Sequence record: OL631481.1
Strand: one strand, 5' to 3'
Length of the DNA: 64,000 nt
DNA from: Escherichia phage ECML-183-2
The position numbers and the translations under genes are program-made. Positions 2,136 through 24,106 of the stretch are shown piece after piece; position 1 is the stretch's first letter, and each line of letters starts with the position of its first letter. The notes below the pieces were generated by a model. The model worked only from the letters and a program-made list of their open reading frames with translations, was not told the DNA's origin and did no database searches.

Positions 2136-2807
2136 CTATTTAATGTTCAATCTAGCACACAAGCGAGAAACAGTTTTAGCATCCCACTTACCACCACGTG
2201 CTGTTGCGATTTTCTTACTATTGAATTTTTCAGCAATAGTTTTGTAAGGTGTATTTAAATCTCTAAGGATCTCCAAGCGTTCACGAAATGTCTCTGCAAA
2301 AGCGTCTGCTTTAACAGAATTGTATTCCATTTTTCCTTTTCTACGTGCAGCGGCAGTTTTAGGATTAGCACTGCCTAACAAAACACCTTTGCTTTTTGCT
2401 ACAGCAAGACCCTTTTTAATACGATCAGCAATACCTCTAACTTCTTGTTCAGCCAGAACAGACAGAAGCTGTATAACCATTTTATCTGCGTCTGGCATGA
2501 TGGCTATCTTAACATCGATCATTTCTAGAAGAGTTGCTACGGAGGCGTTGTTACGACCCAAGCGGTCAACTTTAGCTACCAATAAAGTTGCTCCGGTAGC
2601 TTTACACATTTCAACCGCTTTAACCAGTTCCTTACGTTGCTTCCAATCGCCCTTACCAGAATAGTATTCAGAAAATTGACCAATAACTTCAGCATCAGGC
2701 ACAGAGTCTAAGAAGTAACGGATATCGTTCTCTTGGCTCTCCATACCATATTGTGCCTCACCTTTTTTCTGTTTAGAAAGACGACTGTAAACAACAAACT
2801 TTTTCAT
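2136..2807 (-). CDS. serine recombinase (resolvase/invertase family)
   Basis: N-terminal YSRLSKQ serine-nucleophile motif, DRLGRN motif, C-terminal HTH-like region; AGGAG RBS before ATG 2807. Confidence 0.7.
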   Translation of the reverse strand: MKKFVVYSRLSKQKKGEAQYGMESQENDIRYFLDSVPDAEVIGQFSEYYSGKGDWKQRKELVKAVEMCKATGATLLVAKVDRLGRNNASVATLLEMIDVKIAIMPDADKMVIQLLSVLAEQEVRGIADRIKKGLAVAKSKGVLLGSANPKTAAARRKGKMEYNSVKADAFAETFRERLEILRDLNTPYKTIAEKFNSKKIATARGGKWDAKTVSRLCARLNIK

Positions 2808-2836
2808 AACCACTCCTAAACCATTGCTGTATTCTC

Positions 2837-2865
2837 ACTTTACAAAACGAATAAACACTTGTCAA
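2837..2865 (-). promoter_or_regulatory. sigma70-like promoter for recombinase gene
   Basis: minus strand TTGACA-N17-TAAAGT. Confidence 0.5.
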
Positions 2866-2877
2866 GGTATTTATTAT

Positions 2878-3090
2878 TTACAGCCATTCTACTTTTAAGC
2901 AGTATTCTTCGACATGTTGTTTACGCTTGTTTTTGTCTATGTAAGTGTATTCAACAAATGTCCCAAGATAATCCTTGTCCACATTGTGTTGGCTATTAAT
3001 TGGACATTTAGTACGACAAACCCGTTGCCACTGACGAAGAATTACGGCTTTGTTTTTAGGATCAAAGGGATGAGGGTAATGTGCCTTCAT
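2878..3090 (-). CDS. hypothetical protein (70 aa)
   Basis: ORF with GGAGG RBS. Confidence 0.4.
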   Translation of the reverse strand: MKAHYPHPFDPKNKAVILRQWQRVCRTKCPINSQHNVDKDYLGTFVEYTYIDKNKRKQHVEEYCLKVEWL

Positions 3091-4221: not shown

Positions 4222-4250
4222 ATTATGACAAAGACAGATCCTTCTGTCAA
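4222..4250 (-). promoter_or_regulatory. sigma70-like promoter
   Basis: minus strand TTGACA-N17-CATAAT upstream of 3779-4192. Confidence 0.4.
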
Positions 4251-4567
4251 CCAATTATTTCTTCTGCTACACGTTCTTTTACCCAGTTCACACGATCCAC
4301 ATTCAAATGACAACGGCTTTTTTCCGCTTCTAAGGTGTACTTTCCAAAATTACTGTTGAAAGGCAACACCATAACCAAACCTTTGAGGTAGAACTGCTCA
4401 TGCATTTCATCCAGTACAGGTTCGTATCGTTCGCTTTCTCCTATGTCGTAAAAATCATAGAGGTTCGTGCACAAACCTGTGCAACGGGTGAACGGTTCAC
4501 CTTCAGGAGCACCAGCTTCCAACCATGCCAAATACGTGCGGTAAAATGTTAATAGTTCTTCGCTCAT
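4247..4567 (-). CDS. paralog family A protein
   Basis: AAGGAGA RBS before ATG 4567; motifs FY..YL.WL..GAP, GLC.NL, PFN, R.NWVK.R. Confidence 0.5.
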   Translation of the reverse strand: MSEELLTFYRTYLAWLEAGAPEGEPFTRCTGLCTNLYDFYDIGESERYEPVLDEMHEQFYLKGLVMVLPFNSNFGKYTLEAEKSRCHLNVDRVNWVKERVAEEIIG

Positions 4568-4776
4568 TTCCACTCTCCTTCGTGATAGTAAACCTCAAAA
4601 GAATAGTAAGTGAACATGCTCATTGTAACACCTGCCATTTCTGGATCAAAGGGGGTGTTGTTATACATGTCAACTACTGCCTGACCCGCTGCTTTGGCAT
4701 GTGCTGCTGAATCACAGGCACAAACATCTTTCTCCCACGGAAACTTGCCATCATACTTAAGACGGACAATCCACAT
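4564..4776 (-). CDS. hypothetical protein (70 aa)
   Basis: ORF with GGAGG RBS. Confidence 0.45.
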   Translation of the reverse strand: MWIVRLKYDGKFPWEKDVCACDSAAHAKAAGQAVVDMYNNTPFDPEMAGVTMSMFTYYSFEVYYHEGEWK

Positions 4777-4778
4777 GC

Positions 4779-5006
4779 TTATTCCTCCATCTCAAACCAT
4801 TCAGGGAACACTTTATGGAAGACACGGGTTGTTTCCAAAAGGAATTCCAATTCTTTTTCCAGATCTGCGTTCCAATCGTGCACTTTAACATTGATTGCCA
4901 ATGCACTTGCACGGCGACTTAATTCTTGACAGATTGGATCACGCAGAACTATTGAGTCGTAAAACTGACAAACAGCTTCAAGTTCATACCAGTTATAATC
5001 CGACAT
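4779..5006 (-). CDS. hypothetical protein (75 aa)
   Basis: ORF with GAGGAGG RBS. Confidence 0.45.
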   Translation of the reverse strand: MSDYNWYELEAVCQFYDSIVLRDPICQELSRRASALAINVKVHDWNADLEKELEFLLETTRVFHKVFPEWFEMEE

Positions 5007-5332
5007 TATTCATCCTCCTCTGCAATACGATCTCTTACCCAATTAATTCTGTCCACGTTCAGGTGACAGGCATCTGCATCTGACTCTAAGACATATGCAT
5101 CGTAGTTCTCATTGAAAGGGAGTTCTTGATTCAACACTTTATGGTAAAACTGTGCGTGCATTTCATCTGACAAGGTTGTTATAATGGGGTTGTAATTACC
5201 TCTGTGCACATAATCGAACAAGTTGGCACACAAACCACAATCCCGCCGAAAAGGTTTACCATCAGGAGCACCAACATCAATCCATGCTAGATAAATTTTA
5301 TAAAACTCCATCAACCTTGCGCTTGTTTTCAT
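5006..5332 (-). CDS. paralog family A protein
   Basis: GAGGTGG RBS; same motif set as other family A copies. Confidence 0.5.
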   Translation of the reverse strand: MKTSARLMEFYKIYLAWIDVGAPDGKPFRRDCGLCANLFDYVHRGNYNPIITTLSDEMHAQFYHKVLNQELPFNENYDAYVLESDADACHLNVDRINWVRDRIAEEDE

Positions 5333-8288: not shown

Positions 8289-8593
8289 TGCACATCCTCC
8301 TGTGTAGCATGATCTTTTACCCATTTTATACGGGCAGCATTCAAATGCAATAGCCCGTTTCTTTGTGCAAAATCATATTTAAACCAGTCTCCGTCATCAA
8401 ACGGGTATTCTTCAGACAACCCTGCTTCTCGAAATTGCATTTGCATTTCATAATTTAGATCATCGTAACCACCAGTCCAAAGGTAGAGGCAACTGCACAA
8501 ACCTTTATCGTGCCAGAAAGGATTATTATCTGGAGCACCAGCTAACAGCCAATTATGATAGGCTTGATAAAATTCTTTAAGTTCTTCTGACAT
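8279..8593 (-). CDS. paralog family A protein
   Basis: AGGGGGT RBS; motifs FY..Y..WL.AGAP, GLC, PFD, WVKD. Confidence 0.5.
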   Translation of the reverse strand: MSEELKEFYQAYHNWLLAGAPDNNPFWHDKGLCSCLYLWTGGYDDLNYEMQMQFREAGLSEEYPFDDGDWFKYDFAQRNGLLHLNAARIKWVKDHATQEDVQCQ

Positions 8594-12787: not shown

Positions 12788-13130
12788 GACAATCTCCTCT
12801 CATCGTTAGCCATCTTTCATGGCAATCATCAATCACCAACATCATACGATCAATCTTAAGGAATTACAATCGAATTATCATAGGGGATTCCTATCAATTA
12901 TCCCATATATACCGATTATTTTTGACACCCCATTCTTGTATAAAAAGTAACCCAAAATATCCACGGGGAGAGATTATTTCGACACACCCTGTTTCATGGC
13001 AATCATGGCAAGAATATCTAATAGAATCAATATCATATGGCAAAAATCATGGCGCATACGTAAGAAGTGCTTAACGCGAATTTTCGGGCCGTCAGGTCCA
13101 CGCAGCGACAATTCCCAAATATCATGCGAA

Positions 13131-13149
13131 TGAGAATAATTATCATTCG
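13131..13149. promoter_or_regulatory. Fur-box-like palindromic site
   Basis: GAGAATAATTATCATTCGT, 12 of 19 matches to GATAATGATAATCATTATC. Confidence 0.25.
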
Positions 13150-13310
13150 TATTCAATGACTTATGCAAGGCTCATGCCAACATAGCGACAAGGTGGGCCA
13201 CCTGATTATAAATCACACAAACACTTATTTATCAATGGTTTGGCAACTTCATCATATGACGGAACAATGTCAACTAATCCCGCTCATGACAGACGGACTA
13301 TTATTTATAT

Positions 13311-13329
13311 GAGAATGATTATTATTTAA
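13311..13329. promoter_or_regulatory. Fur-box-like palindromic site
   Basis: GAGAATGATTATTATTTAA. Confidence 0.25.
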
Positions 13330-14363
13330 ACGTTTATTAACATATAAACTAAAATAAATCAAGAATTTTCTGATTTTATTTACGTTTAAGAGAAGGTGCT
13401 CAACATCCTACCGGATCGCCGTTGGCAATCCTCGGATATTTACGCCCCCATGATTAAGGTTTATCTCTTTTATAGCTCAACATTCCCGCCTGTGGCGGTA
13501 ACATTTCGCCCCCAAAATTATTGACTTTTATTCTATTATGTGCATAGTGTGCAATGTATCGGAATGATGATAATCATCCTCCCATTGCCCCCATAATTAT
13601 TGCCATGCTAATTGTTTCATTACGTAATTATTACAATGACTATTGTTATTGCGCTAATGTTATGATCTTGGTAATTACATATAATGCTAATAATAAGCCA
13701 GCGCAATAAGTGTAAGCGTCATTACGCTTGCAATTATTGCAAGCTACGCAGTAACAAGAAATAACCATCACCGATGGTTATGATTGTTGGGGTGTAGTTG
13801 GCTTATTATTAGCTCGCTATGTGTCCGGCATAGCGTGCTAATGATGACTCTGTGAATGATTCGTTTTGTAATGATTTCATTCAGGCACTATTTTGCTAAT
13901 AGTTATTATTTTAATGGTTTCGTTTGTTATTGTTCGTTAGTTGGTTGTTTTGTCGTGTTATCGTTATTTTGCTTAGTATTTATCATGGTTTGATTGTTTG
14001 TCGTTATCAATCATCTTGCTATTATTCCTTTGATTATGATTAGTTTGCTTATTGTTTTATGTTGTTTGTTGGTTAGTTGTTGCGAACTATTATCAACATT
14101 ATAATTATGCGCTTATATTGCATAGATAATCATGGGTAGATGATAATGGTTATCATTGCACTAGAAAGGAGGTAAAAGGGTGTTTTTGATGGTTTGTTGT
14201 TGGTTGTTGATCGATTTTAACCGCTCTAAATAGCTCTCTAACAGCCTGTTGCCCTGGGATGTATGGTTATTCGTTTAATGGTCGATTAGCTCGATACCGT
14301 GATTTATTCAGTTTTGTTCTGTGTCGGTTTTTCATAGGCGAAAGCTATCAACATTGTTCGGGC

Positions 14364-14788: not shown

Positions 14789-14821
14789 TGGTGATTCCTC
14801 GTTTACCGTTTAAAATGATTT

Positions 14822-14864
14822 GCCCTACGTGATAAATAATAATGCAAGCGTGATCCGGTGTCAA
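14822..14864 (-). promoter_or_regulatory. early promoter cassette (variant without GC hairpin)
   Basis: minus strand TTGACA-N17-TATTAT then conserved ttatcACGTAGGGC leader. Confidence 0.55.
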
Positions 14865-15038
14865 TAGGTAAAATTGTAAAGATTTGATAGTTTGTTCCTT
14901 TGATGTTTTGTTGTTTGATAGGCGTTAGTTATCAATATATAGCGGGGTCTTCCGGTGATTATCTTCCCCTGCTCCCAGGTGCCGCCCGTTCAATAAGTAT
15001 AACAAAAAATAGGACTATTGCAAGCCCTATTTATTATC

Positions 15039-15173
15039 TTAAAACCAGGTGCCAACCGTTTCCAATAGGTCACTGACTACAAGGACAACACTGATCAGCA
15101 CATGTTCAACCATGAAAGGGATAAGCGCCAGCGTTGCTACTACGATCCCCATTGTGATGATTACCTTTCTCAT
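15039..15173 (-). CDS. small hydrophobic peptide (44 aa)
   Basis: ATGA start/stop overlap with upstream gene; hand-translated, two hydrophobic segments. Confidence 0.3.
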   Translation of the reverse strand: MRKVIITMGIVVATLALIPFMVEHVLISVVLVVSDLLETVGTWF

Positions 15174-15460
15174 TGTTGGCGGTTTACGTAAGCTTTACCG
15201 TTTACGGTCATCGGTATGGCCTCAAGGTCTGGATCTTCCTTAAGGTCGCGTGCAAGCTCACCGCAGCGGATACCCTCGAATCCGTAGTACTCTGTTGTGC
15301 CGTCCTGGAAAGTTTTAGCGGCAAGGCATAGGCGATAATTAACGCCGATCCGGTTTATTGCGTTGATATCGGTTAGCGTGATGGATTCTGGCAACTCATT
15401 AGCCAGTACAGGCGCGTTAATACCAACAACCAGGGCAACTACTGCGATCATCTTTTTCAT
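15170..15460 (-). CDS. secreted protein with signal peptide (96 aa)
   Basis: MKKMIAVVALVVGINAPVLA N-terminus. Confidence 0.5.
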   Translation of the reverse strand: MKKMIAVVALVVGINAPVLANELPESITLTDINAINRIGVNYRLCLAAKTFQDGTTEYYGFEGIRCGELARDLKEDPDLEAIPMTVNGKAYVNRQQ

Positions 15461-15514
15461 GCGTCTATCCTCTTCCTATTGCGTTTAATGGGGCGTTACC
15501 GCCCCGCTTATGGT

Positions 15515-15751
15515 TTATTGATTGATGTTATGATGAAAGTTATTTTCTTCAATAGCTTTTAAAATAAAAGCCGTGATCGCTTTCGTGTCTACTTGTTCGA
15601 ACGTATCAGAATAAGCCCAATAATAATCATCCCCTACTTTCGGCGGGTAAACCTGGACAAGGAGATCGCCACCTGGTTGATCTATAAGCTCAACATGTAA
15701 GCCGGATGATTCAGCGGTTTTAACGGCGTTTAATACTGTTGCAATACTCAT
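15515..15751 (-). CDS. hypothetical protein (78 aa)
   Basis: AAAGGAAAAG RBS; preceded by GC hairpin. Confidence 0.5.
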   Translation of the reverse strand: MSIATVLNAVKTAESSGLHVELIDQPGGDLLVQVYPPKVGDDYYWAYSDTFEQVDTKAITAFILKAIEENNFHHNINQ

Positions 15752-15795
15752 AATCTTTTCCTTTCTGATGTGGGGCGTTGCCGCCCCTTTGTTGA

Positions 15796-16095
15796 TTAGA
15801 TCGCTGTTTCCAGTAGTTCGGCTAACGTCTTACCGCCTGATAGTTGGTCTAACGTTTGCTCTTCTGGCAAGAAATTAGCTGATATTAATCCGACTTGATT
15901 TCCTTTGTGCCAATTAGCTTGACGGATGATTCCATCCTTTAAAGATTTTACCGCCATTGTGCAACCGTCGCCAAATGATTCATTTTTATGATCCATTACT
16001 TCATAAGCGCCCAGCTTGCTGCTGTTAGGCACCATTAACGCGAATACATCACCAACAACCAGCTTTTCTACGGTAACAATAGCGATAGTTTCCAT
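15796..16095 (-). CDS. hypothetical protein (99 aa)
   Basis: first gene downstream of cassette 16115-16170. Confidence 0.5.
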   Translation of the reverse strand: METIAIVTVEKLVVGDVFALMVPNSSKLGAYEVMDHKNESFGDGCTMAVKSLKDGIIRQANWHKGNQVGLISANFLPEEQTLDQLSGGKTLAELLETAI

Positions 16096-16114
16096 TTTAC
16101 TTTCCTCATTATCG

Positions 16115-16170
16115 GCGGCACCATTGCCGCCCTACGCATTAAATATAAGTTATCTAAGAGATTAGATCAA
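16115..16170 (-). promoter_or_regulatory. promoter plus leader-hairpin cassette
   Basis: minus strand TTGATC-N16-TTATAT, leader GCGTAGGG and hairpin GCGGCAATGGTGCCGC. Confidence 0.55.
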
Positions 16171-16173
16171 GGA

Positions 16174-16365
16174 TTATTTTGTAAAGATTACAGCTTCATC
16201 AAAATTTTCAACATAGTAAGCAAGCTCTTCATTTGCTGCAACCATTCCTAAAAGTTGGCTATAAGATAAACCTTTGATCCCTTCCTCGTTGTTTAATGCT
16301 TCGATGATTTCATCAACGGGCGCAAAAAACATGTTATTCGATTCCAGGTAGGAGATGGTTTTCAT
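16174..16365 (-). CDS. hypothetical protein (63 aa)
   Basis: downstream of cassette 16387-16442. Confidence 0.5.
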   Translation of the reverse strand: MKTISYLESNNMFFAPVDEIIEALNNEEGIKGLSYSQLLGMVAANEELAYYVENFDEAVIFTK

Positions 16366-16386
16366 AATGTTTACCTTTTTCGGGGA

Positions 16387-16442
16387 GCGGCACCATTGCC
16401 GCCCTACGTGGTAAATATTAGCACACTGGCGATCTGTGTCAA
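16387..16442 (-). promoter_or_regulatory. promoter plus leader-hairpin cassette
   Basis: TTGACA-N16-TAATAT, ttaccACGTAGGG, hairpin GCGGCAATGGTGCCGC. Confidence 0.6.
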
Positions 16443-16448
16443 TACTTT

Positions 16449-16835
16449 TTATTCAATATAAATCAAATTATCTTCACCAATGTAAGCCGACACGTTCGGC
16501 ATAAACTTAGCTGCATTGGTTAGGCGGTTCGCCGTGTTAGTGGTGTATATTTCAGGGCGATCCCAAAAGCCTACGCCGTGACCGTTACGGGTAAAATGTA
16601 AATCATTCCCGATCTGGTTGGCTGTTGCGCCGTCGCTCATTGCCTCAGAGATAGCGGCAAGATTAGCATTAATAAAGGCTGTTACATCCTGGGCGATCCG
16701 TTGATGGGCTTGATCTGAAAAATCATAATCAGTCATGTCATCTATAAAATTACCTTCATGATCCCTTGCGGATTCAGCAAAAATAAAGGCTTCTTTATAA
16801 CCGTTGATGATTTCAATAATGATTTCTGTTTTCAT
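16449..16835 (-). CDS. hypothetical protein (128 aa)
   Basis: ATGA-coupled to upstream ORF. Confidence 0.5.
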   Translation of the reverse strand: MKTEIIIEIINGYKEAFIFAESARDHEGNFIDDMTDYDFSDQAHQRIAQDVTAFINANLAAISEAMSDGATANQIGNDLHFTRNGHGVGFWDRPEIYTTNTANRLTNAAKFMPNVSAYIGEDNLIYIE

Positions 16836-17056
16836 GCTGTACGCTCGACAATAATAATAGTTTGCGGGATCTCGTTTTCTACTACTAACAAGGCTTTTTT
16901 CTGTGTGATAGATATTTTAACACGTTGTAAAGTAGCGGTGAAATCTTTCATTTCATTATGCGCGGACTTCGTGCAATGCCAGATCTCAGGCTTACCAACT
17001 TGTAAGCCGCGTAAAAATTCCGTTTTGCCTGTTTTGTTCGTGATCATTTGTTTCAC
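16832..17056 (-). CDS. hypothetical protein (74 aa)
   Basis: AAGGTGA RBS. Confidence 0.5.
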   Translation of the reverse strand: MKQMITNKTGKTEFLRGLQVGKPEIWHCTKSAHNEMKDFTATLQRVKISITQKKALLVVENEIPQTIIIVERTA

Positions 17057-17057
17057 C

Positions 17058-17162
17058 TTAACCGATACCGTGGGAAGATAGGATCATGTTAGCCATAGTT
17101 GCAACCACTCCAACCGATAACGCCAGGCCCACTATTACAACCGTGAAAATTTTCTCTAACAT
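17058..17162 (-). CDS. small hydrophobic peptide (34 aa)
   Basis: track ORF trimmed to ATG downstream of the cassette; GAGGG RBS. Confidence 0.35.
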   Translation of the reverse strand: MLEKIFTVVIVGLALSVGVVATMANMILSSHGIG

Positions 17163-17180
17163 GATTCTACCCTCATTAAT

Positions 17181-17242
17181 GGGCGTTGCACCATTGCCCC
17201 GCCCTACGTAATACACTTTACCAGATAACAAATTATTGTCAA
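17181..17242 (-). promoter_or_regulatory. promoter plus leader-hairpin cassette
   Basis: TTGACA-N16-TAAAGT, ACGTAGGG, GC hairpin. Confidence 0.55.
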
Positions 17243-17306
17243 GGTTTATTTTACTTCCCAAACGGAAAATTCACTGCGTGGCGGGAAGTATTCCCCGCCT
17301 TATTAA

Positions 17307-17477
17307 TTACTCTTCATCGTCGCCGTTATAGTATTCAATGCCGTTTTCATCGGTTACGGTGATGTTAACGCCACCGATAGCAACACGATCACGGGCAAAC
17401 GTCATAGCTTCATTTAAATCTTCAGACCAAAAAATATTGTGACCTTTGCGCGATACATAAAACATAGTCGGGATCAT
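17307..17477 (-). CDS. hypothetical protein (56 aa)
   Basis: track ORF trimmed to ATG (MIPTMF) downstream of hairpin. Confidence 0.45.
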   Translation of the reverse strand: MIPTMFYVSRKGHNIFWSEDLNEAMTFARDRVAIGGVNITVTDENGIEYYNGDDEE

Positions 17478-17499
17478 GATTTGTTTCTCTTCTGTTGTG

Positions 17500-17561
17500 A
17501 GCGGTGGACCATTCCGCCGCCCTATGTGGTAAACTTTACTACGTTGTTTGCCTGTTGTCAA
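17500..17561 (-). promoter_or_regulatory. promoter plus leader-hairpin cassette
   Basis: TTGACA-N17-TAAAGT, ttaccACATAGGG, hairpin GGCGGCGGAATGGTCCACCGC. Confidence 0.6.
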
Positions 17562-17562
17562 A

Positions 17563-17847
17563 TTATTTTTTAATGTTTTGCCCTACAAAATTGATCACTT
17601 CCTTAAGCTGTCTCTCTGTCATGATCGTACCTGGTAACTCTTCTTTAATTTCTTCCGGTAAATAGATATTACCGCGCCAGGTTAACAAACAACCGTTTTG
17701 ATCTTCGCAGATAGAATAAGAAAACATCCACTCGCAATCATTTTCAAGCTCCCAAAAACACAAAAAGTCTTCTTTCCCTAAGTTTTCAACGGTTAAACAT
17801 AATCCGCGACGTGCTGCATAATTAGTCAGGCTTTTTGTGATTTTCAT
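17563..17847 (-). CDS. hypothetical Cys-rich protein (94 aa)
   Basis: track ORF trimmed to ATG (MKITKS) downstream of hairpin. Confidence 0.5.
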   Translation of the reverse strand: MKITKSLTNYAARRGLCLTVENLGKEDFLCFWELENDCEWMFSYSICEDQNGCLLTWRGNIYLPEEIKEELPGTIMTERQLKEVINFVGQNIKK

Positions 17848-17869
17848 GATTTTTCTCTCTTCTTGTGAG

Positions 17870-17924
17870 CGGCACCATTGCCGCCCTACAAGATACATAT
17901 TATCAGACTAGGCGGACTTGTCAA
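17870..17924 (-). promoter_or_regulatory. promoter plus leader-hairpin cassette
   Basis: TTGACA-N16-TAATAT, hairpin GCGGCAATGGTGCCGC. Confidence 0.6.
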
Positions 17925-17925
17925 A

Positions 17926-18036
17926 CTATTTTTTCTTTTTCTTTGCTTCCAACCGTCTAAGGTTACGGCTTGACTTATTTCGCAAGGCGCTTAGATCGTC
18001 GTACCCTTTCCATGCTTGCATATCTTTCGGATTCAT
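17926..18036 (-). CDS. small basic protein (36 aa)
   Basis: hand-translated MNPKDMQAWKGYDD...; AAGGGG RBS. Confidence 0.3.
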   Translation of the reverse strand: MNPKDMQAWKGYDDLSALRNKSSRNLRRLEAKKKKK

Positions 18037-18045
18037 GTTATCCCC

Positions 18046-18207
18046 TTACTTGTTAGCCGGATCATATACCAGGACCGCGCCGCTTGCTTTCACGCTTTCC
18101 GCTTCATAGTTGCGCAGATCGTTTTCTGTAAGGTTGAGCGCGATCACTTCCTCGATCTCAACGTCAGCGGCAAGGGCGATCTCTTTGATAATGTCTGTTG
18201 TTTTCAT
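18046..18207 (-). CDS. small protein (53 aa)
   Basis: hand-translated MKTTDIIKEIALAADVE...; AAGGTG RBS. Confidence 0.35.
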   Translation of the reverse strand: MKTTDIIKEIALAADVEIEEVIALNLTENDLRNYEAESVKASGAVLVYDPANK

Positions 18208-18217
18208 AGTACGCACC

Positions 18218-18337
18218 TTATAAGATGATTGATAAGATAGTGATAACGAAAGCGATTATACTGATGGCAAATGTCATCTTTTTACCTTCGGATACTGCCG
18301 GATTTTCTACCGTGTATTCTACTGTGTACTTGCTCAT
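18218..18337 (-). CDS. small membrane-anchored peptide (39 aa)
   Basis: hand-translated; GAGAGG RBS; C-terminal hydrophobic helix. Confidence 0.3.
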   Translation of the reverse strand: MSKYTVEYTVENPAVSEGKKMTFAISIIAFVITILSIIL

Positions 18338-18360
18338 CGTGTAATCCTCTCGTTTGCTTT

Positions 18361-18418
18361 GGGAACTATTCCCGCCGCCTTATGAATTAAATATACACTA
18401 TCTCAAAATGATTGCAAG
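18361..18418 (-). promoter_or_regulatory. promoter plus leader-hairpin cassette
   Basis: TTGCAA-N16-TATATT, hairpin GGCGGCGGGAATAGTTCCC. Confidence 0.5.
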
Positions 18419-18434
18419 CCTTTTTCTAAATTAT

Positions 18435-18719
18435 TTATGCAGTAAACAAACCATCATTTACAACGGCGGCGATGATCTCCCGTGCCATTGATTCAGGGAA
18501 AGGGGCGCTATAGTCCTGGCTTGTCTCATCGGTATCAGTGATCCAATGATAAGCTAACGAGTAAAAGCCTTTACTAACTGTTTTCAGTGAGATGATGATC
18601 ACTCGGTCAAGCTTATTGGTGAATGTTGCCGTTAATGTGTTACCCTCCTGCGTCATGTTGGACAAGTAAGCGGGATCATTAATCAGGGAAAACATTAGCA
18701 CGGTGTTAGCTTTACTCAT
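18435..18719 (-). CDS. hypothetical protein (94 aa)
   Basis: track ORF trimmed to ATG (MSKANTV) downstream of hairpin. Confidence 0.5.
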   Translation of the reverse strand: MSKANTVLMFSLINDPAYLSNMTQEGNTLTATFTNKLDRVIIISLKTVSKGFYSLAYHWITDTDETSQDYSAPFPESMAREIIAAVVNDGLFTA

Positions 18720-18737
18720 GATTGCATCCTCAAAGGG

Positions 18738-18794
18738 GCGCGGCACCATTGCCGCCCTACACGATAACTATAACACAATGTAAAACAGGATCAA
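18738..18794 (-). promoter_or_regulatory. promoter plus leader-hairpin cassette
   Basis: TTGATC-N16-TATAGT, hairpin GCGGCAATGGTGCCGC. Confidence 0.55.
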
Positions 18795-18997
18795 CCTTTA
18801 TTTTTCCACGGTGTCAGCTTGTTAATCATTGGTGATAAATAGCGTTTACCAACGTAAAACAGTACGCCAACTGATGCAACGGCGGCGATCTCATGTAAGG
18901 AGGAAGGTCGCGCGGTGTCATAATAGGTACCAATAATAGCAATAGCGGCTACTGCGGCAATGTCTGTAATAATTTTTTCTTGTTTTGCGGTGATCAT
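18791..18997 (-). CDS. small membrane protein (68 aa)
   Basis: track ORF trimmed to ATG (MITAKQ); two hydrophobic segments. Confidence 0.45.
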   Translation of the reverse strand: MITAKQEKIITDIAAVAAIAIIGTYYDTARPSSLHEIAAVASVGVLFYVGKRYLSPMINKLTPWKNKG

Positions 18998-19019
18998 AAT
19001 ATTTACCTTTTTGTATGGT

Positions 19020-19078
19020 GGGGGAACTATTCCCCGCCTGATGTAATACAGTTTAACAGGTCCGGTTATGGTGTCAAC
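19020..19078 (-). promoter_or_regulatory. promoter plus leader-hairpin cassette
   Basis: TTGACA-N16-TAAACT, hairpin GGCGGGGAATAGTTCCCC. Confidence 0.55.
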
Positions 19079-19083
19079 CACTT

Positions 19084-19269
19084 TTAAAGATATTTTATAT
19101 TGATAACGTTTTCAGGTTTAACCTTGTTGTGATGTGCATCAACATAGATCAAACCATCGTCAGAAAAGCCCAGGATCACGCCCTGCGCAATAAAACCGTA
19201 TTCGTCACGGTAACGCACGGCTATTTTTAACGTTGCGTTGTAGGCTGTTTTAAGCTCGTTTAAAGTCAT
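19084..19269 (-). CDS. hypothetical protein (61 aa)
   Basis: AGAGGA RBS. Confidence 0.45.
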   Translation of the reverse strand: MTLNELKTAYNATLKIAVRYRDEYGFIAQGVILGFSDDGLIYVDAHHNKVKPENVINIKYL

Positions 19270-19290
19270 TTTTGTTTATCCTCTACATGT

Positions 19291-19318
19291 AAAAAGAAAG
19301 GGCGCTTGGTGCGCCCTT
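19291..19318 (-). terminator. intra-array terminator or attenuator hairpin
   Basis: hairpin AAGGGCGC-accaa-GCGCCCTT followed by TTTCTTTTT on the minus strand. Confidence 0.4.
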
Positions 19319-19324
19319 GTTATG

Positions 19325-19471
19325 TTAATCCTCTAAATCCATCCAATTATATTTGTCACTCTTCCCGCGCTTTGTTTTATTACGCTTGTCGCCTTTTCGG
19401 ATCACTTCCTCGTTCCAGGCCTTGCGGATCTTGGAAGATTGAATTTTTTCTGCGCGATTAGATGTATTCAT
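19325..19471 (-). CDS. small basic protein (48 aa)
   Basis: hand-translated MNTSNRAEKIQSSKIRK...; AAGAGGA RBS. Confidence 0.35.
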   Translation of the reverse strand: MNTSNRAEKIQSSKIRKAWNEEVIRKGDKRNKTKRGKSDKYNWMDLED

Positions 19472-19491
19472 TTTGTTTCCTCTTTATATGA

Positions 19492-19544
19492 GCGGCACCA
19501 TTGCCGCTATATTATTAATTTAAACTGTTTTGTAAAATTGTCAA
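19492..19544 (-). promoter_or_regulatory. promoter plus leader-hairpin cassette
   Basis: TTGACA-N16-TAAATT, hairpin GCGGCAATGGTGCCGC. Confidence 0.5.
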
Positions 19545-19550
19545 GGTTTA

Positions 19551-19904
19551 TCATTGATAAGAGCAAGCAAGGATCACGCCTGCAATATAAAGCCAATAAT
19601 TTTCCCTTTCTCGTTGGATTTTATCATCGCTGCTATTCTCTTTAATGTATCCCCAGGATGTTAACAGGCGATCAATTTCCCAATATTCGAAAGCGATATT
19701 GATATCTGATGGCAAGCCTTGTAACCATGATGCAAGTGCTTTAACAATACTATAATTAAAACGTGATTGGTTATCAGGGTACCAGTACTCGGAATTAAAA
19801 CGGTGCATCAATTCCGCGATCTTCTCTTTTTCGGTTGTAATACCGTAATCATTAAAATCGATAGCGGCAAGGATGTACTCTTTAATTGCATTTTGTGCTT
19901 TCAT
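19551..19904 (-). CDS. hypothetical protein (117 aa)
   Basis: AAGAGAGAAAG RBS. Confidence 0.5.
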   Translation of the reverse strand: MKAQNAIKEYILAAIDFNDYGITTEKEKIAELMHRFNSEYWYPDNQSRFNYSIVKALASWLQGLPSDINIAFEYWEIDRLLTSWGYIKENSSDDKIQRERENYWLYIAGVILACSYQ

Positions 19905-19922
19905 GGTCTTTCTCTCTTTTTG

Positions 19923-19979
19923 AGCGGGAACTATTCCCGCCCTACGTGTAACAGTTTACTAAAAATTAAATCCGTGTCA
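19923..19979 (-). promoter_or_regulatory. promoter plus leader-hairpin cassette
   Basis: TTGACA-N16-TAAACT, ACGTAGGG, hairpin GCGGGAATAGTTCCCGC. Confidence 0.6.
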
Positions 19980-19983
19980 AGCT

Positions 19984-20205
19984 TTATTTTGTTACTACCA
20001 TTTGGTACCCTGTTTCAATGTTAGTAAATACTGTTATCCCGTCCTGGCGTTCACTCATTAGCATACAAGGCGCTAACATCCTTTCTACTGCCTTGCACTC
20101 ATTGTAAACGGCGGTTATGTCTCCTGCGGCCTTGTCTTCTGTGGTGAATGTATCGTTTACGTAAACCTGACCAGCGACAACGGCGACAATAGCGAAAGTG
20201 ATCAT
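19984..20205 (-). CDS. hypothetical protein (73 aa)
   Basis: starts MITFA; AAGGAA RBS. Confidence 0.45.
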   Translation of the reverse strand: MITFAIVAVVAGQVYVNDTFTTEDKAAGDITAVYNECKAVERMLAPCMLMSERQDGITVFTNIETGYQMVVTK

Positions 20206-20240
20206 GATGTTTCCTTGTTAGTAGTGGTTTCTCTTCTCTA

Positions 20241-20276
20241 TAGCGCCCATTGTAAGGCGCTATAACGAAAAGTCAA
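20241..20276 (-). promoter_or_regulatory. variant promoter with -10 inside a hairpin
   Basis: TTGACT-N16-TACAAT; hairpin TATAGCGCC....GGCGCTATA. Confidence 0.4.
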
Positions 20277-20279
20277 CGA

Positions 20280-20447
20280 TTATTTTTTAAGGCTTAAAGT
20301 ACCTAACTTGTCAGCATGACGCAGACCAGGGAAGATCCATTTGCCTGATTCATCTTTCACCGGGGCTTTAAGCGTAGCGCCCAGGTTGGCGGCGTTAACT
20401 TTACGTGCAACGTTGCGAGCGGCTTCACGGGTAGCGAAAGTGATCAT
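20280..20447 (-). CDS. small protein (55 aa)
   Basis: hand-translated MITFATREAARNVARK...; AGAGGA RBS. Confidence 0.35.
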   Translation of the reverse strand: MITFATREAARNVARKVNAANLGATLKAPVKDESGKWIFPGLRHADKLGTLSLKK

Positions 20448-20471
20448 GATATTTTCCTCTTCTCTTTGTTA

Positions 20472-20533
20472 GGCGGTGGACCATTCCGCCGCCTTGATGT
20501 AATACAGTTTACTTTATTTTTGCAGTATTGCAA
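20472..20533 (-). promoter_or_regulatory. promoter plus leader-hairpin cassette
   Basis: TTGCAA-N16-TAAACT, hairpin GGCGGCGGAATGGTCCACCGCC. Confidence 0.5.
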
Positions 20534-20539
20534 GCGGTT

Positions 20540-20752
20540 TTATGAAATAATCGTCAAAGTAAAATTGTAATCACCTGATTGATACAATACTTTATCACCG
20601 AACGTTCCAACACGTTTAACATTGCAATATATACCCATAACACTTTTTACATCTTTGATATTCTTCACGCCTGTAATATCTTTATTAAAATGATCGTGAT
20701 CAGAAAATAAAACTTGTTTTGCATTTTTCAACAAGGTGCGGATATTAGCCAT
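20540..20752 (-). CDS. hypothetical protein (70 aa)
   Basis: downstream of cassette. Confidence 0.5.
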   Translation of the reverse strand: MANIRTLLKNAKQVLFSDHDHFNKDITGVKNIKDVKSVMGIYCNVKRVGTFGDKVLYQSGDYNFTLTIIS

Positions 20753-20775
20753 CGTGATAATCTCTCTTCTGTTGT

Positions 20776-20833
20776 GAGCGGCACTATTGCCGCCCTACGT
20801 AATACAGTTTACTCTTTTTCTTTCCCGTGTCAA
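20776..20833 (-). promoter_or_regulatory. promoter plus leader-hairpin cassette
   Basis: TTGACA-N16-TAAACT, ACGTAGGG, hairpin GCGGCAATAGTGCCGC. Confidence 0.6.
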
Positions 20834-20842
20834 CAATCTTTT

Positions 20843-21070
20843 TCAGATTAATTCATCCAGGCATAACAGGCGATCAACGTTGAGATCGGTTAGGCTGATG
20901 GTTGGCACCTGGTAGGATTCGATGTACTCGACGCTCGCATATTCTCCAAAATTAGCAATAGCCCACTTATTCAAGATCTCACATACATCATTAATCTTTT
21001 TGTTTGTTACAACTGCTACAACCTGGGAACTGCCAACGGTGCCGGATACACGAACAATATTGATAGCCAT
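20843..21070 (-). CDS. hypothetical protein (75 aa)
   Basis: downstream of cassette. Confidence 0.5.
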   Translation of the reverse strand: MAINIVRVSGTVGSSQVVAVVTNKKINDVCEILNKWAIANFGEYASVEYIESYQVPTISLTDLNVDRLLCLDELI

Positions 21071-21092
21071 AATCTTTAATCTCTCTGTTGTT

Positions 21093-21152
21093 GGCGGGAA
21101 ACCATTTCCCGCCCTATGTGATACATCTTACACTAATTTTAAACGTTGTCAA
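21093..21152 (-). promoter_or_regulatory. promoter plus leader-hairpin cassette
   Basis: TTGACA-N16-TAAGAT, gtatcACATAGGG, hairpin GGCGGGAAATGGTTTCCCGCC. Confidence 0.6.
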
Positions 21153-21162
21153 CTGTTTTTTA

Positions 21163-21402
21163 TTACATTCCAACCATCGCGGCACGGATCGCAGTAGTGC
21201 TATATTTGAAACCGTCTGGAGTTTTATCTTGTCCAGTTTGTTCCAGAAAAAGCATCATATCCCGCGCCGCATCATTACGATTAGCATTAGCGTTAATAAA
21301 ATCCAAGGCCAACCGATACAATGATTCATCGTTATTAATCCAAAGGCTTACATTCCAATGAGTTTTGTTTTTGTGACCGTTGTACATTTTAGATTTAGCC
21401 AT
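21163..21402 (-). CDS. hypothetical protein (79 aa)
   Basis: downstream of cassette. Confidence 0.5.
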   Translation of the reverse strand: MAKSKMYNGHKNKTHWNVSLWINNDESLYRLALDFINANANRNDAARDMMLFLEQTGQDKTPDGFKYSTTAIRAAMVGM

Positions 21403-21426
21403 GATTTTTCTCTCTTTTTCAGTGAG

Positions 21427-21485
21427 GCGGGAAGTGTTCCCGCTCTCTATGTAATACAGTTTACTCTTTTTATTCGTGCTGTCAA
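21427..21485 (-). promoter_or_regulatory. promoter plus leader-hairpin cassette
   Basis: TTGACA-N16-TAAACT, hairpin GCGGGAACACTTCCCGC. Confidence 0.55.
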
Positions 21486-21491
21486 TGCTTT

Positions 21492-21857
21492 TTATAAATC
21501 TTTTTTACGTTTTACATCGCTTGCATGACTGTATACAGTGATCCCATTGTCACGGCAAAAACGGGAAAGATACGCGCCGCGTGAAAATTCCTTGCCCTCA
21601 AGGTTGATAACCTTGCTAAATTCTTCCAGGGCGACGGTATCAAAATGATCACCATAGCCATATTGAAACGGAACGTTAACCACCTCGATCAGTTTACCGC
21701 CGATCTCAACGTCAACCAGTAAAGAAAAATATGTGTTACCGTAGGACTGTTGAAACCAGCGACGGGCACTAATATGCACCGCCTCAATGCTGGATAATTC
21801 AATTTTAGCCGTGTTAGCCAGGGTAGCATAAGCGGAAACATTGATATTAATAGCCAT
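21492..21857 (-). CDS. hypothetical protein (121 aa)
   Basis: downstream of cassette. Confidence 0.5.
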   Translation of the reverse strand: MAININVSAYATLANTAKIELSSIEAVHISARRWFQQSYGNTYFSLLVDVEIGGKLIEVVNVPFQYGYGDHFDTVALEEFSKVINLEGKEFSRGAYLSRFCRDNGITVYSHASDVKRKKDL

Positions 21858-21883
21858 GGTGTCACTCTCTCTTTTTGGTTAGT

Positions 21884-21935
21884 GGGAAGTATTCCCGATA
21901 AAAGTTATTATGCTTATACTATCACTCATTGTCAA
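21884..21935 (-). promoter_or_regulatory. promoter plus leader-hairpin cassette
   Basis: TTGACA-N17-CATAAT, hairpin GGGAATACTTCCC. Confidence 0.5.
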
Positions 21936-21954
21936 TAGTATAAGACTAAAACTT

Positions 21955-22134
21955 TTAACGATAATCATTATAGGCTTTATTGACCTGGCGAATGTAACAT
22001 TCGAAAGCAAGATCAATGTATTCGTATTCACGCACATAATCACCATAGGTCACTACATACATTTTTAAAGTTTCCTCATAAGCCAGGAGGATCGAATCTA
22101 AACCTATAATCTCAGTTTTTGCAATGATAGCCAT
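21955..22134 (-). CDS. small protein (59 aa)
   Basis: hand-translated MAIIAKTEIIGLDS...; below the 60-aa cutoff of the supplied track. Confidence 0.4.
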   Translation of the reverse strand: MAIIAKTEIIGLDSILLAYEETLKMYVVTYGDYVREYEYIDLAFECYIRQVNKAYNDYR

Positions 22135-22155
22135 GATGTTAACCTTTTATTGTTG

Positions 22156-22211
22156 GCGGCACCATTGCCGCCCTACGTGATAAACTATACCAGAAGTTTA
22201 AACAGTGTCAA
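22156..22211 (-). promoter_or_regulatory. promoter plus leader-hairpin cassette
   Basis: TTGACA-N16-TATAGT, ttatcACGTAGGG, hairpin GCGGCAATGGTGCCGC. Confidence 0.6.
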
Positions 22212-22217
22212 CCGTTT

Positions 22218-22580
22218 TTATTCGTAAATTTTACCGCTTTCGGCCCATACCATAACGCGGCGCATACTATCCCAAGTGTTTTGATCCAGGTTTAAGCCGT
22301 GCAACTCTTCGGTACTTCCCAGACCAGGTACCGCTTTGTTGTAAGTCGCATATAAGCGCCCTTGATACTCATACGCCAGAGTAAGATCCGTTTGAATCAT
22401 CTTTTTAAGCATAGCATTAAGCATCATATTAGCGGCATGTTGATCACGTTTTAGCGGTAACATGTCAATAAGGGCGCGATAAGCTGAAACATGAATATCA
22501 ACCGTTTCACGTGGTAAATTTTTCATATCATCGCGGAAGGACACCAGGTTTAACATGATAGTATTGATTTGCTTGCTCAT
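22218..22580 (-). CDS. hypothetical protein (120 aa)
   Basis: downstream of cassette. Confidence 0.5.
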   Translation of the reverse strand: MSKQINTIMLNLVSFRDDMKNLPRETVDIHVSAYRALIDMLPLKRDQHAANMMLNAMLKKMIQTDLTLAYEYQGRLYATYNKAVPGLGSTEELHGLNLDQNTWDSMRRVMVWAESGKIYE

Positions 22581-22601
22581 TGTGTTACCCTTTTTTGTTT
22601 T

Positions 22602-22662
22602 GGCGGGGAAGTATTCCGCCGCCCTATGTGATACATCTTATCAGATTAAAAAACGTTGTCAA
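22602..22662 (-). promoter_or_regulatory. promoter plus leader-hairpin cassette
   Basis: TTGACA-N16-TAAGAT, gtatcACATAGGG, hairpin GGCGGCGGAATACTTCCCCGCC. Confidence 0.6.
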
Positions 22663-22670
22663 GAATATTT

Positions 22671-22766
22671 TTAGAAAATAATAGCCGCTACTACAATCCA
22701 AAATGGAACGGCTAGAATGATAGCGTTAATCGTTCCAACCGTCAAGCTATTTTCTTTATTAATCAT
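22671..22766 (-). CDS. micro membrane peptide (31 aa) with its own cassette
   Basis: hand-translated MINKENSLTVGTINAIILAVPFWIVVAAIIF; AAGAGG RBS. Confidence 0.25.
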   Translation of the reverse strand: MINKENSLTVGTINAIILAVPFWIVVAAIIF

Positions 22767-22795
22767 TGTAAGCCTCTTGCATAATTTCACTATGA

Positions 22796-22852
22796 GCGGC
22801 ACCATTGCCGCCCTACGTGGTAAATATTATGCCAGTGGCGGCGATATGTCAA
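22796..22852 (-). promoter_or_regulatory. promoter plus leader-hairpin cassette
   Basis: TTGACA-N17-TAATAT, ttaccACGTAGGG, hairpin GCGGCAATGGTGCCGC. Confidence 0.6.
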
Positions 22853-23406
22853 AGACTATTTTCAAAGTTTTCTAGTGCGATCCTTTTTTCTTCCTCTGTC
22901 GGCTGATAATCAGGAAAAGCATCAACACACAACAACGGCGGGATCTCTTCGTACTCTTCCTCTTCCGTTGTCTCCTCGTCTTCCTCCTGGGCTATGGCTG
23001 CAATTTTGGCTAATTTTCTTTCAGCTTGAATCAATTTACCATCAAGTACGTTTTTTGCCATGTTGTAAGCGGTCCAGGTGATGCGCTTACTTTCCAGTGC
23101 TTGATCAAGCGCCGCTATCTTGCTGGGGTATTCATCCAGGACACGAAAAGCCGGATCAACTTTGTACAAAGGATTATCTTTCGCGCCGTCGCTCGCATCT
23201 TCCGCACTGGATAAATCAGCGTTACCATTTGCCAGCCAGCCAGGGCGCACATAACGCGCTTTTACGTTGCCGTTACTACGTGCTAATCTGTTACCTATTT
23301 GCTCACCACTATATCCCGTGGATTCATCGATAAGATGATCGGGAATGATGCGCGGATCATCTGCTTCATGTTTTACCCAAGACTGGATCACATATTCGCG
23401 GCCCAT
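22849..23406 (-). CDS. hypothetical protein with acidic C-terminal tail (185 aa)
   Basis: start moved to ATG (MGREY) after GGTGG RBS. Confidence 0.5.
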   Translation of the reverse strand: MGREYVIQSWVKHEADDPRIIPDHLIDESTGYSGEQIGNRLARSNGNVKARYVRPGWLANGNADLSSAEDASDGAKDNPLYKVDPAFRVLDEYPSKIAALDQALESKRITWTAYNMAKNVLDGKLIQAERKLAKIAAIAQEEDEETTEEEEYEEIPPLLCVDAFPDYQPTEEEKRIALENFENSL

Positions 23407-23407
23407 A

Positions 23408-23665
23408 TTAACCACCTTTTTTCAACAATTGGCATACTTTAAAAAGACTTGCTGAATCCTTGCAAGGGTAGAAAGATGTACGATAATCACGTACGCCAAC
23501 CTTGCGGATCTCGATGTTCTCGCATGTTGTTTGATCAAAGATATTTATTTCATCACGCCCCCTTATATAAACATAGTGGGGATGTATTAACGCATATTTT
23601 GCTAATCTGTAAAAAGCGTTATCTTTGAACGCGATCACGTGACCTTTTAATTTGATGTAAAACAT
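23408..23665 (-). CDS. hypothetical protein (85 aa)
   Basis: GGTGG RBS; downstream of cassette. Confidence 0.5.
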   Translation of the reverse strand: MFYIKLKGHVIAFKDNAFYRLAKYALIHPHYVYIRGRDEINIFDQTTCENIEIRKVGVRDYRTSFYPCKDSASLFKVCQLLKKGG

Positions 23666-23683
23666 TCTACCACCTTACAAATA

Positions 23684-23738
23684 GCGGGAACTATTCCCGC
23701 TTTATGTAACATATTAACAAATTATTCGTTAATGTCAA
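23684..23738 (-). promoter_or_regulatory. promoter plus leader-hairpin cassette
   Basis: TTGACA-N16-TAATAT, hairpin GCGGGAATAGTTCCCGC. Confidence 0.55.
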
Positions 23739-23741
23739 ACC

Positions 23742-24014
23742 TTAAAGCAAAAACGCTACATCTTGCGCTTTTAGTGTAGTATCAACCATTTTCGGGCTTT
23801 TATAATCAACAAAGCGCGCGGTTTTTTCAATAGCGAAACCGAGATAATCTTGTTTATTGAATTTACATTCTTTCTTAAATGTTTCCCGCGCCACGGTGAT
23901 CGCTGCGTCCAGGGATAAACGCCCGTCAATGTTGATATTTGCGAAAGATCCGCCACCGCTCATAGGTTTACCAGTGGTGCCAGCTACGATCATTGTTGCG
24001 CTATATGATGCCAT
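23742..24014 (-). CDS. hypothetical protein (90 aa)
   Basis: track ORF trimmed to ATG (MASYSA) downstream of hairpin. Confidence 0.5.
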   Translation of the reverse strand: MASYSATMIVAGTTGKPMSGGGSFANINIDGRLSLDAAITVARETFKKECKFNKQDYLGFAIEKTARFVDYKSPKMVDTTLKAQDVAFLL

Positions 24015-24038
24015 GATTATAATCTCTCTTCTGTTGTG

Positions 24039-24100
24039 AGCGGCTGGACCATTCCGCCGCCCTATGTGATACATCTTATCAGGTTGTTGTTTGTTGTCAA
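24039..24100 (-). promoter_or_regulatory. promoter plus leader-hairpin cassette
   Basis: TTGACA-N16-TAAGAT, gtatcACATAGGG, hairpin GGCGGCGGAATGGTCCAGCCGC. Confidence 0.6.
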
Positions 24101-24106
24101 TACTTT

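Follow-up and report, generated by a model that had tools for sequence, protein, structure and literature searches.

Introduction

In the Cre/loxP system of phage P1, a phage-encoded site-specific recombinase cyclizes terminally redundant DNA and resolves dimers. In phAPEC8-like phages, a gene for a small serine recombinase is already known and annotated in public genomes, under names that range from hypothetical protein to resolvase, DNA invertase, serine recombinase and recombinase family protein; several records mislabel it as 'methionine ABC transporter ATP-binding protein'. Deposited orthologues include phAPEC8 gp049, phi92 gp052 (to which the annotation of FBKp34 ties the gene), the ESCO13 'resolvase', the Ro121c4YLVW 'serine recombinase' and alia gp178, a 'DNA invertase'. 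These have the same length and architecture as the protein described here, with no difference of substance.

Our literature search found only passing mentions of the gene. One paper asserts, without data, that concatemers are kept as single genomes by the recombinase (PMC10282059), and the gene was overlooked in another (PMC10269720). Direct terminal repeats have been described for this phage type (PMC12695924, PMC12210895).

We analyzed a stretch of 64,000 nucleotides from Escherichia phage ECML-183-2 (OL631481.1), referred to below as the window. What is new here is the ratio of 18 synonymous to 0 non-synonymous codon differences relative to phage DE16, the single-gene cassette with its own promoter, the occurrence of this cassette at two loci, and the likeness of the C-terminal domain to that of another class of serine recombinases.

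Results

The recombinase gene and its catalytic domain

The window belongs to Phapecoctavirus (subfamily Stephanstirmvirinae), a genus of phAPEC8-like virulent E. coli myoviruses with genomes of ~150 kb and direct terminal repeats. Its first 35 kb form a long array of small genes on the minus strand, and its first 8 kb are 96-98% identical to ~60 phAPEC8-like phages. An earlier note on this DNA had described a virulent-type genome and no visible integrase or repressor in the window; the assignment to a virulent genus bears out the first statement, and the annotation of DE16, the nearest complete genome, is in keeping with the second.

The recombinase gene occupies positions 2136..2807 on the minus strand (ATG at 2807-2805, stop codon at 2138-2136) and encodes 223 aa. 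In the ORF listing, it is given as 2136..2813 (minus strand) with a GTG start and 225 aa; we favor the ATG two codons downstream, because homologues begin at the equivalent M(K)KF. A ribosome-binding site, AGGAG, was read from the sequence at 2813..2817 (minus strand), 5 nt upstream of the ATG. The gene upstream (2878-3090, minus strand) encodes a 70-aa, full-length DUF7202 protein (E 1.8e-37), which is labeled 'putative ABC transporter ATP-binding protein' publicly; a similar wrong name has passed to the recombinase in some records. The early arm also holds a family of paralogous proteins of ~108 aa (VOG7392 in some annotations), encoded at 1362-1727, 4247-4573, 5006-5332 and ~8300-8560, and this family is likewise multi-copy in phiWec181, Tr1 and alia.

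The N-terminus of the recombinase reads MKKFVVYSRLSKQ, and KVDRLGRN is also present. A Pfam scan, which the earlier note had proposed as a check, matched residues 5-142 to PF00239 (Resolvase) with an E-value of 5.2e-18 and a score of 66 bits against a cut-off of 23.3. The 223-aa ORF with a resolvase/invertase signature is thus real, with both of the motifs that had been quoted for it. Among PHROG families, the protein matched PHROG 125, named 'DNA invertase' (E 2.6e-32), with a weaker match to PHROG 95, 'integrase'; no NCBIfam family scored above its cut-off for this protein. Residues Y7, R9, S11, Q25, R58, D81, R82, R85, E122 and R129 align with the catalytic constellation of γδ resolvase and Hin. 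All 58 family members compared have the first eight unchanged; E122 and R129 do not vary in a 15-sequence alignment and are conserved in at least 90% of the 58 homologues. Ser11, the predicted catalytic nucleophile (codon at 2775..2777, minus strand), corresponds to Ser10 of γδ resolvase and is unchanged in all of these alignments, so that the catalytic serine, whose loss would have spoken against the earlier assignment, is kept. The catalytic domain with its long helix E spans residues 1-142 (2382..2807, minus strand), as delimited by the PF00239 match, the structural model and Foldseek. Membership in the serine recombinase superfamily is indicated by the Pfam score, the active-site constellation and the α/β fold with the long helix E. 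The N-terminal MerR-like helix-turn-helix (HTH) of IS607-type enzymes is absent, as the catalytic domain begins at residue 1.

Judged from these residues, the protein is a catalytically intact small serine recombinase and apparently active. Because eight of these residues do not vary among 58 homologues, selection appears to act on catalysis itself. The same pattern bears on the idea that the protein has lost recombination and serves as a DNA-binding regulator. Autorepression is common among resolvases, and the failure to find a pair of sites (see below) would fit such a regulator as well; nevertheless, eight invariant active-site residues, together with the near-invariant E122 and R129, would be unexpected if catalysis were dispensable, and we consider this explanation very unlikely.

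The C-terminal domain

The earlier note had also reported a C-terminal HTH. A single-sequence AlphaFold2 model was unusable (pLDDT 46), but a model built with a 58-sequence alignment had a mean pLDDT of 88.6, with values of 89-94 for residues 171-220. It shows a resolvase-type catalytic domain, helix E at residues 109-139 and then a helical C-terminal domain, with helices at 149-172, 175-183, 188-197 and 210-219. The presumed DNA-binding domain, residues 149-223 (2139..2363, minus strand), is supported by these pLDDT values, by a weak match to PF07508 ('Recombinase'; residues 187-216, E 0.003, below the cut-off) and by its alignment with Bxb1 and SPbeta. In the Pfam scan, the C-terminus did not match the HTH family of Hin and resolvases, PF00239 and the weak PF07508 match being the only ones found. 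The helical C-terminal domain was thus confidently predicted, and the earlier description of it as an HTH holds only in part.

Structural comparisons were in line with this result. The top Foldseek match was the large serine integrase Bxb1, over the full length, followed by the catalytic domains of Sin, γδ and TP901. When the family profile was compared with solved structures, Gin (the best match, E 2e-17) and Tn3/γδ resolvase were best for the catalytic part, and only the large serine recombinases Bxb1 and SPbeta aligned out to residues 202-216. In sequence and in the predicted model, the C-terminus resembles the initial helices of the 'recombinase domain' in large serine recombinases, and not the HTH of Hin or resolvases.

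Conservation and selection

At least 62 public phage records contain a recombinase protein that is at least 99% identical to this one. At the DNA level, the gene is 95.2-99.1% identical across 64 records, or 97.2-99.1% when Schickermooser is left out. Relative to DE16, 18 codons differ, with 18 synonymous and 0 non-synonymous changes, and relative to tuntematon there are 14 synonymous changes and 1 non-synonymous change. In contrast, the synonymous to non-synonymous ratio of most neighboring small genes is near 1:1. These codon comparisons show unusually strong purifying selection on the recombinase in phAPEC8-like phages.

Schickermooser (L021, 401-1050) is the sole Phapecoctavirus record, 1 of 64, in which the gene is broken. 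Its copy has six small deletions within ~190 nt of the first third, the remainder of the gene being intact, which is either decay or a sequencing error. From this copy, the recombinase may be dispensable in the laboratory.

Promoter and genomic location

A sigma-70-type promoter, TTGACA-N17-TAAAGT, lies at 2837..2865 on the minus strand (TTGACA at 2865-2860, TAAAGT at 2842-2837) and matches the consensus at 10 of 12 positions. The pattern alone is not significant, as 22 promoter-like sites occur in the 8-kb region versus 20.7 expected. Support comes from its position inside the 70-nt intergenic gap and from five other lineages (phiWec181, Tr1, alia, Klebsiella phage phi1_175008 and FBKp34): there, the DNA before the orthologue is otherwise unalignable, yet a corresponding TTGAC(A/T)/TTGATC-N17-(-10) box immediately precedes the gene. 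The promoter proposed in the earlier note is therefore confirmed by its presence at 2865-2837 and by the matching box in these five lineages.

Within the subfamily, the recombinase is 74% identical in the phiWec phages, 67% in Citrobacter phage Tr1, 57% in Justusliebigvirus and 52-55% in Klebsiella phages. It is found at two loci. Justusliebigvirus alia and Klebsiella phage phi1_175008 have it in the middle arm (PhoH ... phosphatase), flanked by gp179 and gp177; similarly, in FBKp34 a gp179-type gene lies upstream of it, as in alia. In Phapecoctavirus, the gp179 and gp177 homologues are adjacent, with a terminator-like hairpin between them, and the recombinase lies ~15 kb from them on the opposite strand, after the DUF7202 gene. 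The DUF7202 gene of alia is located elsewhere, with other genes next to it. A search for a conserved partner gene showed that the flanking genes are not conserved with the recombinase between genera. In all six lineages, a sigma-70-type promoter stands directly upstream of the gene in surrounding DNA that cannot be aligned, and despite the two loci, the recombinase is retained in at least four genus-level lineages of Stephanstirmvirinae.

It is conceivable that the gene is a selfish or recently transferred single-gene cassette, acquired from a plasmid or prophage and of little importance for replication. The occurrence of an exact promoter-plus-gene unit at two loci in related genera, the lack of conserved neighbors, the abundance of relatives on plasmids and the one broken copy would agree with this. 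However, the 18:0 ratio and the near-identity of the protein in 62 genomes argue for a selected function, and there is no room for end sites, because only 8 nt separate the recombinase stop codon from the next ATG. The 57% identity between genera is also within the range of flanking, vertically inherited proteins (46-87%), so that an old relocation is as likely as repeated acquisition. Overall, we regard a selfish or recently acquired cassette as unlikely.

Relatives in other phages, plasmids and prophages

The recombinase family comprises 2,542 clusters at E ≤1e-10; most of the best 150 are 215-245 aa long and align over their full length. Distant copies, at 30-38% identity, are present in Vibrio and Shewanella myoviruses, including some isolates of ICP1. 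In Vibrio phage ICP1 isolate 2017_DRC_48 (L003, 4001-4756), the homologue has 252 aa and 30% identity, and it is found in at least two ICP1 isolates. It lies within the gp30-gp41 block, among genes without reference gp numbers, which looks like accessory content.

Many plasmids carry full-length homologues at 35-40% identity, among them plasmids of 5.7-7 kb with 5-6 genes. In a 5.8-kb Klebsiella plasmid with a 36% identical full-length homologue, we found a 34-bp dyad, TATCATTTGTTTGCCG-aa-CGGCAAATTTATGATA, which has a 2-bp center and is situated 34 bp upstream of the gene (listed at -65). From its sequence, this dyad looks like a serine recombinase crossover site.

A 43% identical prophage homologue adjoins tail-fiber genes with inverted TTGTTCTTCGAC sites (L022, 1-5800; a Logan ERR14228542 contig, with the same genes in NCBI GCA_049170095.1). 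The inverted copies of TTGTTCTTCGAC lie inside two of the tail-fiber genes, and a shorter copy, GTTCTTCGA, lies in a third. In a simulated inversion, 333 aa were fused in frame to an alternative C-terminus of 193 aa, giving an ORF of 526 aa. This prophage segment is likely, from its sequence, a tail-fiber switch run by a member of this recombinase family. Two further contexts in which homologues lie are the border of a Pseudomonas prophage and that of a small primase/packaging element (36% identity). Thus, relatives at 35-45% identity look resolvase-like in small plasmids and invertase-like in one prophage. Since their contexts differ, homology at this level cannot fix the type of reaction.

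Searches for an invertible segment and for integration

The earlier note had suggested that the phage may contain an invertible segment. For a genome-wide search, we used DE16, which is 97% identical and of which 150,000 of 151,363 bp were assembled. In a self-comparison of this genome, there was no inverted repeat of at least 20 bp other than bidirectional terminators and the hairpins of repeated promoter cassettes, and perfect inverted repeats of at least 13 nt within 6 kb were near the shuffled expectation. The structural and tail genes of DE16 (56-98.6 kb) are all on one strand, which means that silent, inverted alternative gene ends are absent. In local BLAST, the window was fully collinear with DE16, and the 8 kb and 24 kb around the recombinase each mapped to one uninterrupted, collinear stretch in 60 and 56 public genomes, respectively; in megablast, the window from 8 to 33 kb was too mosaic for inversions to be read. 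Large deletions or rearrangements from ~15 kb downstream of the recombinase were seen in WPEC1 (L018), WPEC2 and WPEC4. These records were excluded; they are 155-161 kb long, have a scrambled module order and come without taxonomy, and are probably assembly artefacts.

One small candidate was a 15-nt perfect inverted repeat flanking 98 nt (13686-13813). It had the same orientation in 132 of 132 records, and compensatory changes show that it is part of a folded element.

A DNA invertase of the Hin/Gin/Cin type, flipping a phage segment such as tail-fiber ends or a promoter, is what the 'DNA invertase' label of PHROG 125 and the Gin match of the family profile would lead one to expect, and the prophage relative with its inverted sites and its in-frame 526-aa product provides an example within the family. 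Against this, the phage genome has neither the repeats nor the orientation polymorphism in 56-60 genomes that such a switch would leave, its tail genes lie on one strand, and the sole candidate segment never changes orientation. Enzymes of the Hin/Gin type normally have a local invertible segment, and the lack of inverted repeats and the collinearity speak against one here. The proposal of an invertible segment is thus not supported, and a phage-segment invertase is quite improbable.

To account for the weaker PHROG 95 'integrase' match and for the homologue at the edge of the primase/packaging element, one could also suppose that the protein is an integrase and gives the phage a concealed temperate or carrier state. 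For the 2 kb surrounding the recombinase, however, no match was found in 5,426 complete E. coli genomes. Moreover, large serine integrases rely on a zinc ribbon and a coiled coil, neither of which this protein has, and no repressor or other lysogeny gene is annotated in DE16. An integrase is accordingly the least probable of the functions weighed here. The recombinase is most probably neither a local DNA invertase nor an integrase.

Genome ends and candidate recombination sites

Between ~12800 and 14300, the window contains a 1.5-kb non-coding region. In phage BME3, a direct terminal repeat of 342 bp is annotated, and its alignment with the window falls at 13063-13164. The first base of several GenBank records corresponds to position 13073, 13081 or 13475, and the ends of many records lie within 0.3-1 kb of the neighboring conserved element that is described next. 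Together, the repeat alignment, the record starts and the record ends place the termini at ~13.06-13.4 kb, ~10 kb from the recombinase.

The same region holds an unannotated non-coding element of ~125-190 nt (13680-13870, core 13722-13845), which is 73-83% identical across Stephanstirmvirinae outside Phapecoctavirus, including Klebsiella, Serratia and Salmonella phages. It forms 3-4 hairpins with 11-12 compensatory base-pair changes; the plus strand folds better (-52 versus -39 kcal/mol) and has invariant G-U pairs. An Rfam search of the first 36 kb of the window, which includes this element, found nothing. Possible roles are those of a structured RNA or of a signal for packaging or replication.

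The E. coli Fur-box core TGATAATNATTATCA is closely matched at 13131-13145, 13310-13324, 14141-14155, 25023-25037 and 25081-25095, in two non-coding regions, and a sixth match lies at 36675. The total of 6 compares with 0.7 expected, and no shuffle reached 6. One of these matches is inside the terminal repeat and is conserved in BME3. The matches hint at iron- or Fur-linked regulation or titration. Beside two of the Fur-box-like palindromes, between gene modules, lies an AT-rich direct repeat of 72 nt (25139-25210 and 25277-25348, 82% identical), which may be an origin or a regulatory region; in alia, repeat regions are annotated at an apparently equivalent place.

The region from 14800 to 24400, which differs between related genomes in a highly mosaic way, contains an intergenic cassette in at least 11 copies, and one inverted copy lies at 46200-46250. 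On the minus strand, each consists of a TTGACA-N17 promoter, a GC-rich hairpin (GGGCGGCAATGGTGCCGCTC or a variant), a ribosome-binding site and a small gene. They resemble the promoter-stem-loop cassettes of T4-type phages.

Several of these elements were considered as sites for the recombinase and rejected. A serine recombinase site needs a 2-bp center. The palindromes at 13124-13152 and 25078-25104, which have a common half-site (ATRCRAATSA), are spaced oddly and unequally, and they match the Fur-box core TGATAATNATTATCA. The promoter-hairpin cassettes at 14.8-24.4 kb were considered as shuffling sites; their stems are only 6-7 bp long with asymmetric flanks, and the repeat is absent from the recombinase cassette. 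A search for a res-like site gave no dyad of at least 11/14 within 300 bp of the recombinase in any of six phage lineages; degenerate or distant sites would escape this search. Dyads across the window occurred at chance frequency. Sequence searches of the genome as a whole, which degenerate sites would likewise escape, revealed no recombination sites, an outcome that the earlier note had named as grounds against its proposal.

The lack of a detectable site in the phage genome raises the question of whether the recombinase acts on non-phage DNA (the host chromosome, plasmids, prophages or satellites) as an early takeover or counter-defense tool. Its host-type promoter and its location in the early arm, among small genes of the host-takeover type, are consistent with this, as is the 30% homologue in at least two ICP1 isolates, in a gene block that suggests an accessory region. 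On the other hand, the hosts of the carrier lineages differ (Escherichia, Klebsiella, Citrobacter), and a conserved host target would be needed. We know of no precedent for a serine recombinase used on foreign DNA in this way, and a foreign target seems improbable to us. That the recombinase has no phage target whatsoever, and is an early weapon that rearranges foreign DNA (host chromosome, plasmids, prophages, satellites), is decidedly improbable. If true, it would explain both the missing phage site and the presence of the ICP1 homologue in an apparent accessory region.

Discussion

As far as its sequence tells, the gene studied here is that of a catalytically intact recombinase, strongly conserved in strictly lytic phages, and is otherwise an ordinary annotated gene. 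Our leading guess, which we infer and hold tentatively, is that the recombinase resolves or cyclizes the phage's own replicating DNA at a distant site; concatemer or dimer resolution was the second role that the earlier note had put forward. According to this model, it would be made early from its own host-type (sigma-70) promoter, in the early-gene arm of a virulent phAPEC8-like phage, and its substrate in conservative site-specific recombination would be the DNA of the phage itself. The enzyme would either cyclize the incoming terminally repetitive genome or resolve circular multimers early in replication, like a plasmid resolvase. The site of action would be distant from the gene and degenerate.

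Several observations favor a role on the phage's own DNA. Across 62 records, protein identity is at least 99% despite DNA differences of 0.9-2.8%, and there are resolvase-type relatives in plasmids, one of them with a dyad upstream of the gene. Furthermore, phages of this type have direct terminal repeats and the termini lie ~10 kb from the recombinase, so a substrate for cyclization exists. Other findings count against it. No candidate site was found, including any dyad within 300 bp at the threshold given above in the six lineages, and the palindromes of the terminal region are oddly spaced and look like Fur boxes or stems of the structured element. The relatives are not uniform either, since the 43% identical one is beside an invertible tail-fiber segment and others are at the edge of a prophage or small element. 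In addition, terminal repeats are also found in phages that do without an enzyme of this kind.

These results have a practical side. Screening tools for phage therapy flag recombinase genes as signs of a temperate phage, and phAPEC8-like phages are frequent therapy candidates. That this recombinase is most probably not an integrase, and that no prophages were found in 5,426 E. coli genomes, is useful for safety screens. Once the site of the recombinase is located, one could tell whether a Cre/lox-like step is part of the life cycle of lytic phages with terminal repeats.

Cre/loxP is a functional analogy to the role proposed above. Cre, however, is a tyrosine recombinase of a temperate phage, P1, and its site, loxP, is known, whereas no site was found here. 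Hin, Gin and Cin have the catalytic domain in common with the phage protein, but the phage gene is without an adjacent invertible segment, inverted repeats or orientation polymorphism in the 56-60 genomes compared.

The γδ/Tn3 resolvases and Sin share the catalytic domain, the active-site residues and the long helix E; they are similar in size, and their promoter is directly upstream of the gene, as in the phage. In contrast to this likeness, the identity is only ~26%, ~10 residues are missing before helix E relative to γδ, and the phage protein lacks the resolvase HTH. Its gene also has neither a three-subsite res nor a single adjoining dyad. The C-terminus instead has its counterpart in large serine integrases (Bxb1, phiC31, SPbeta SprA), where it aligns with the opening helices of the 'recombinase domain'. 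Those proteins have 450-600 aa as compared to 223 aa, and the phage protein has only the first helices of that domain, without the zinc ribbon, the coiled coil or a prophage form.

The small-plasmid 'recombinase family proteins', such as those of Klebsiella pIIIF7SW-P1_2 and Marinovum pMaD11, differ in the DNA before the gene, which is 650-680 bp of non-coding sequence in the plasmids (with the 34-bp dyad in one) and a 70-bp gap without a dyad in the phage. The proteins themselves align with the phage recombinase over their full length at 35-40% identity and have the same two-domain layout.
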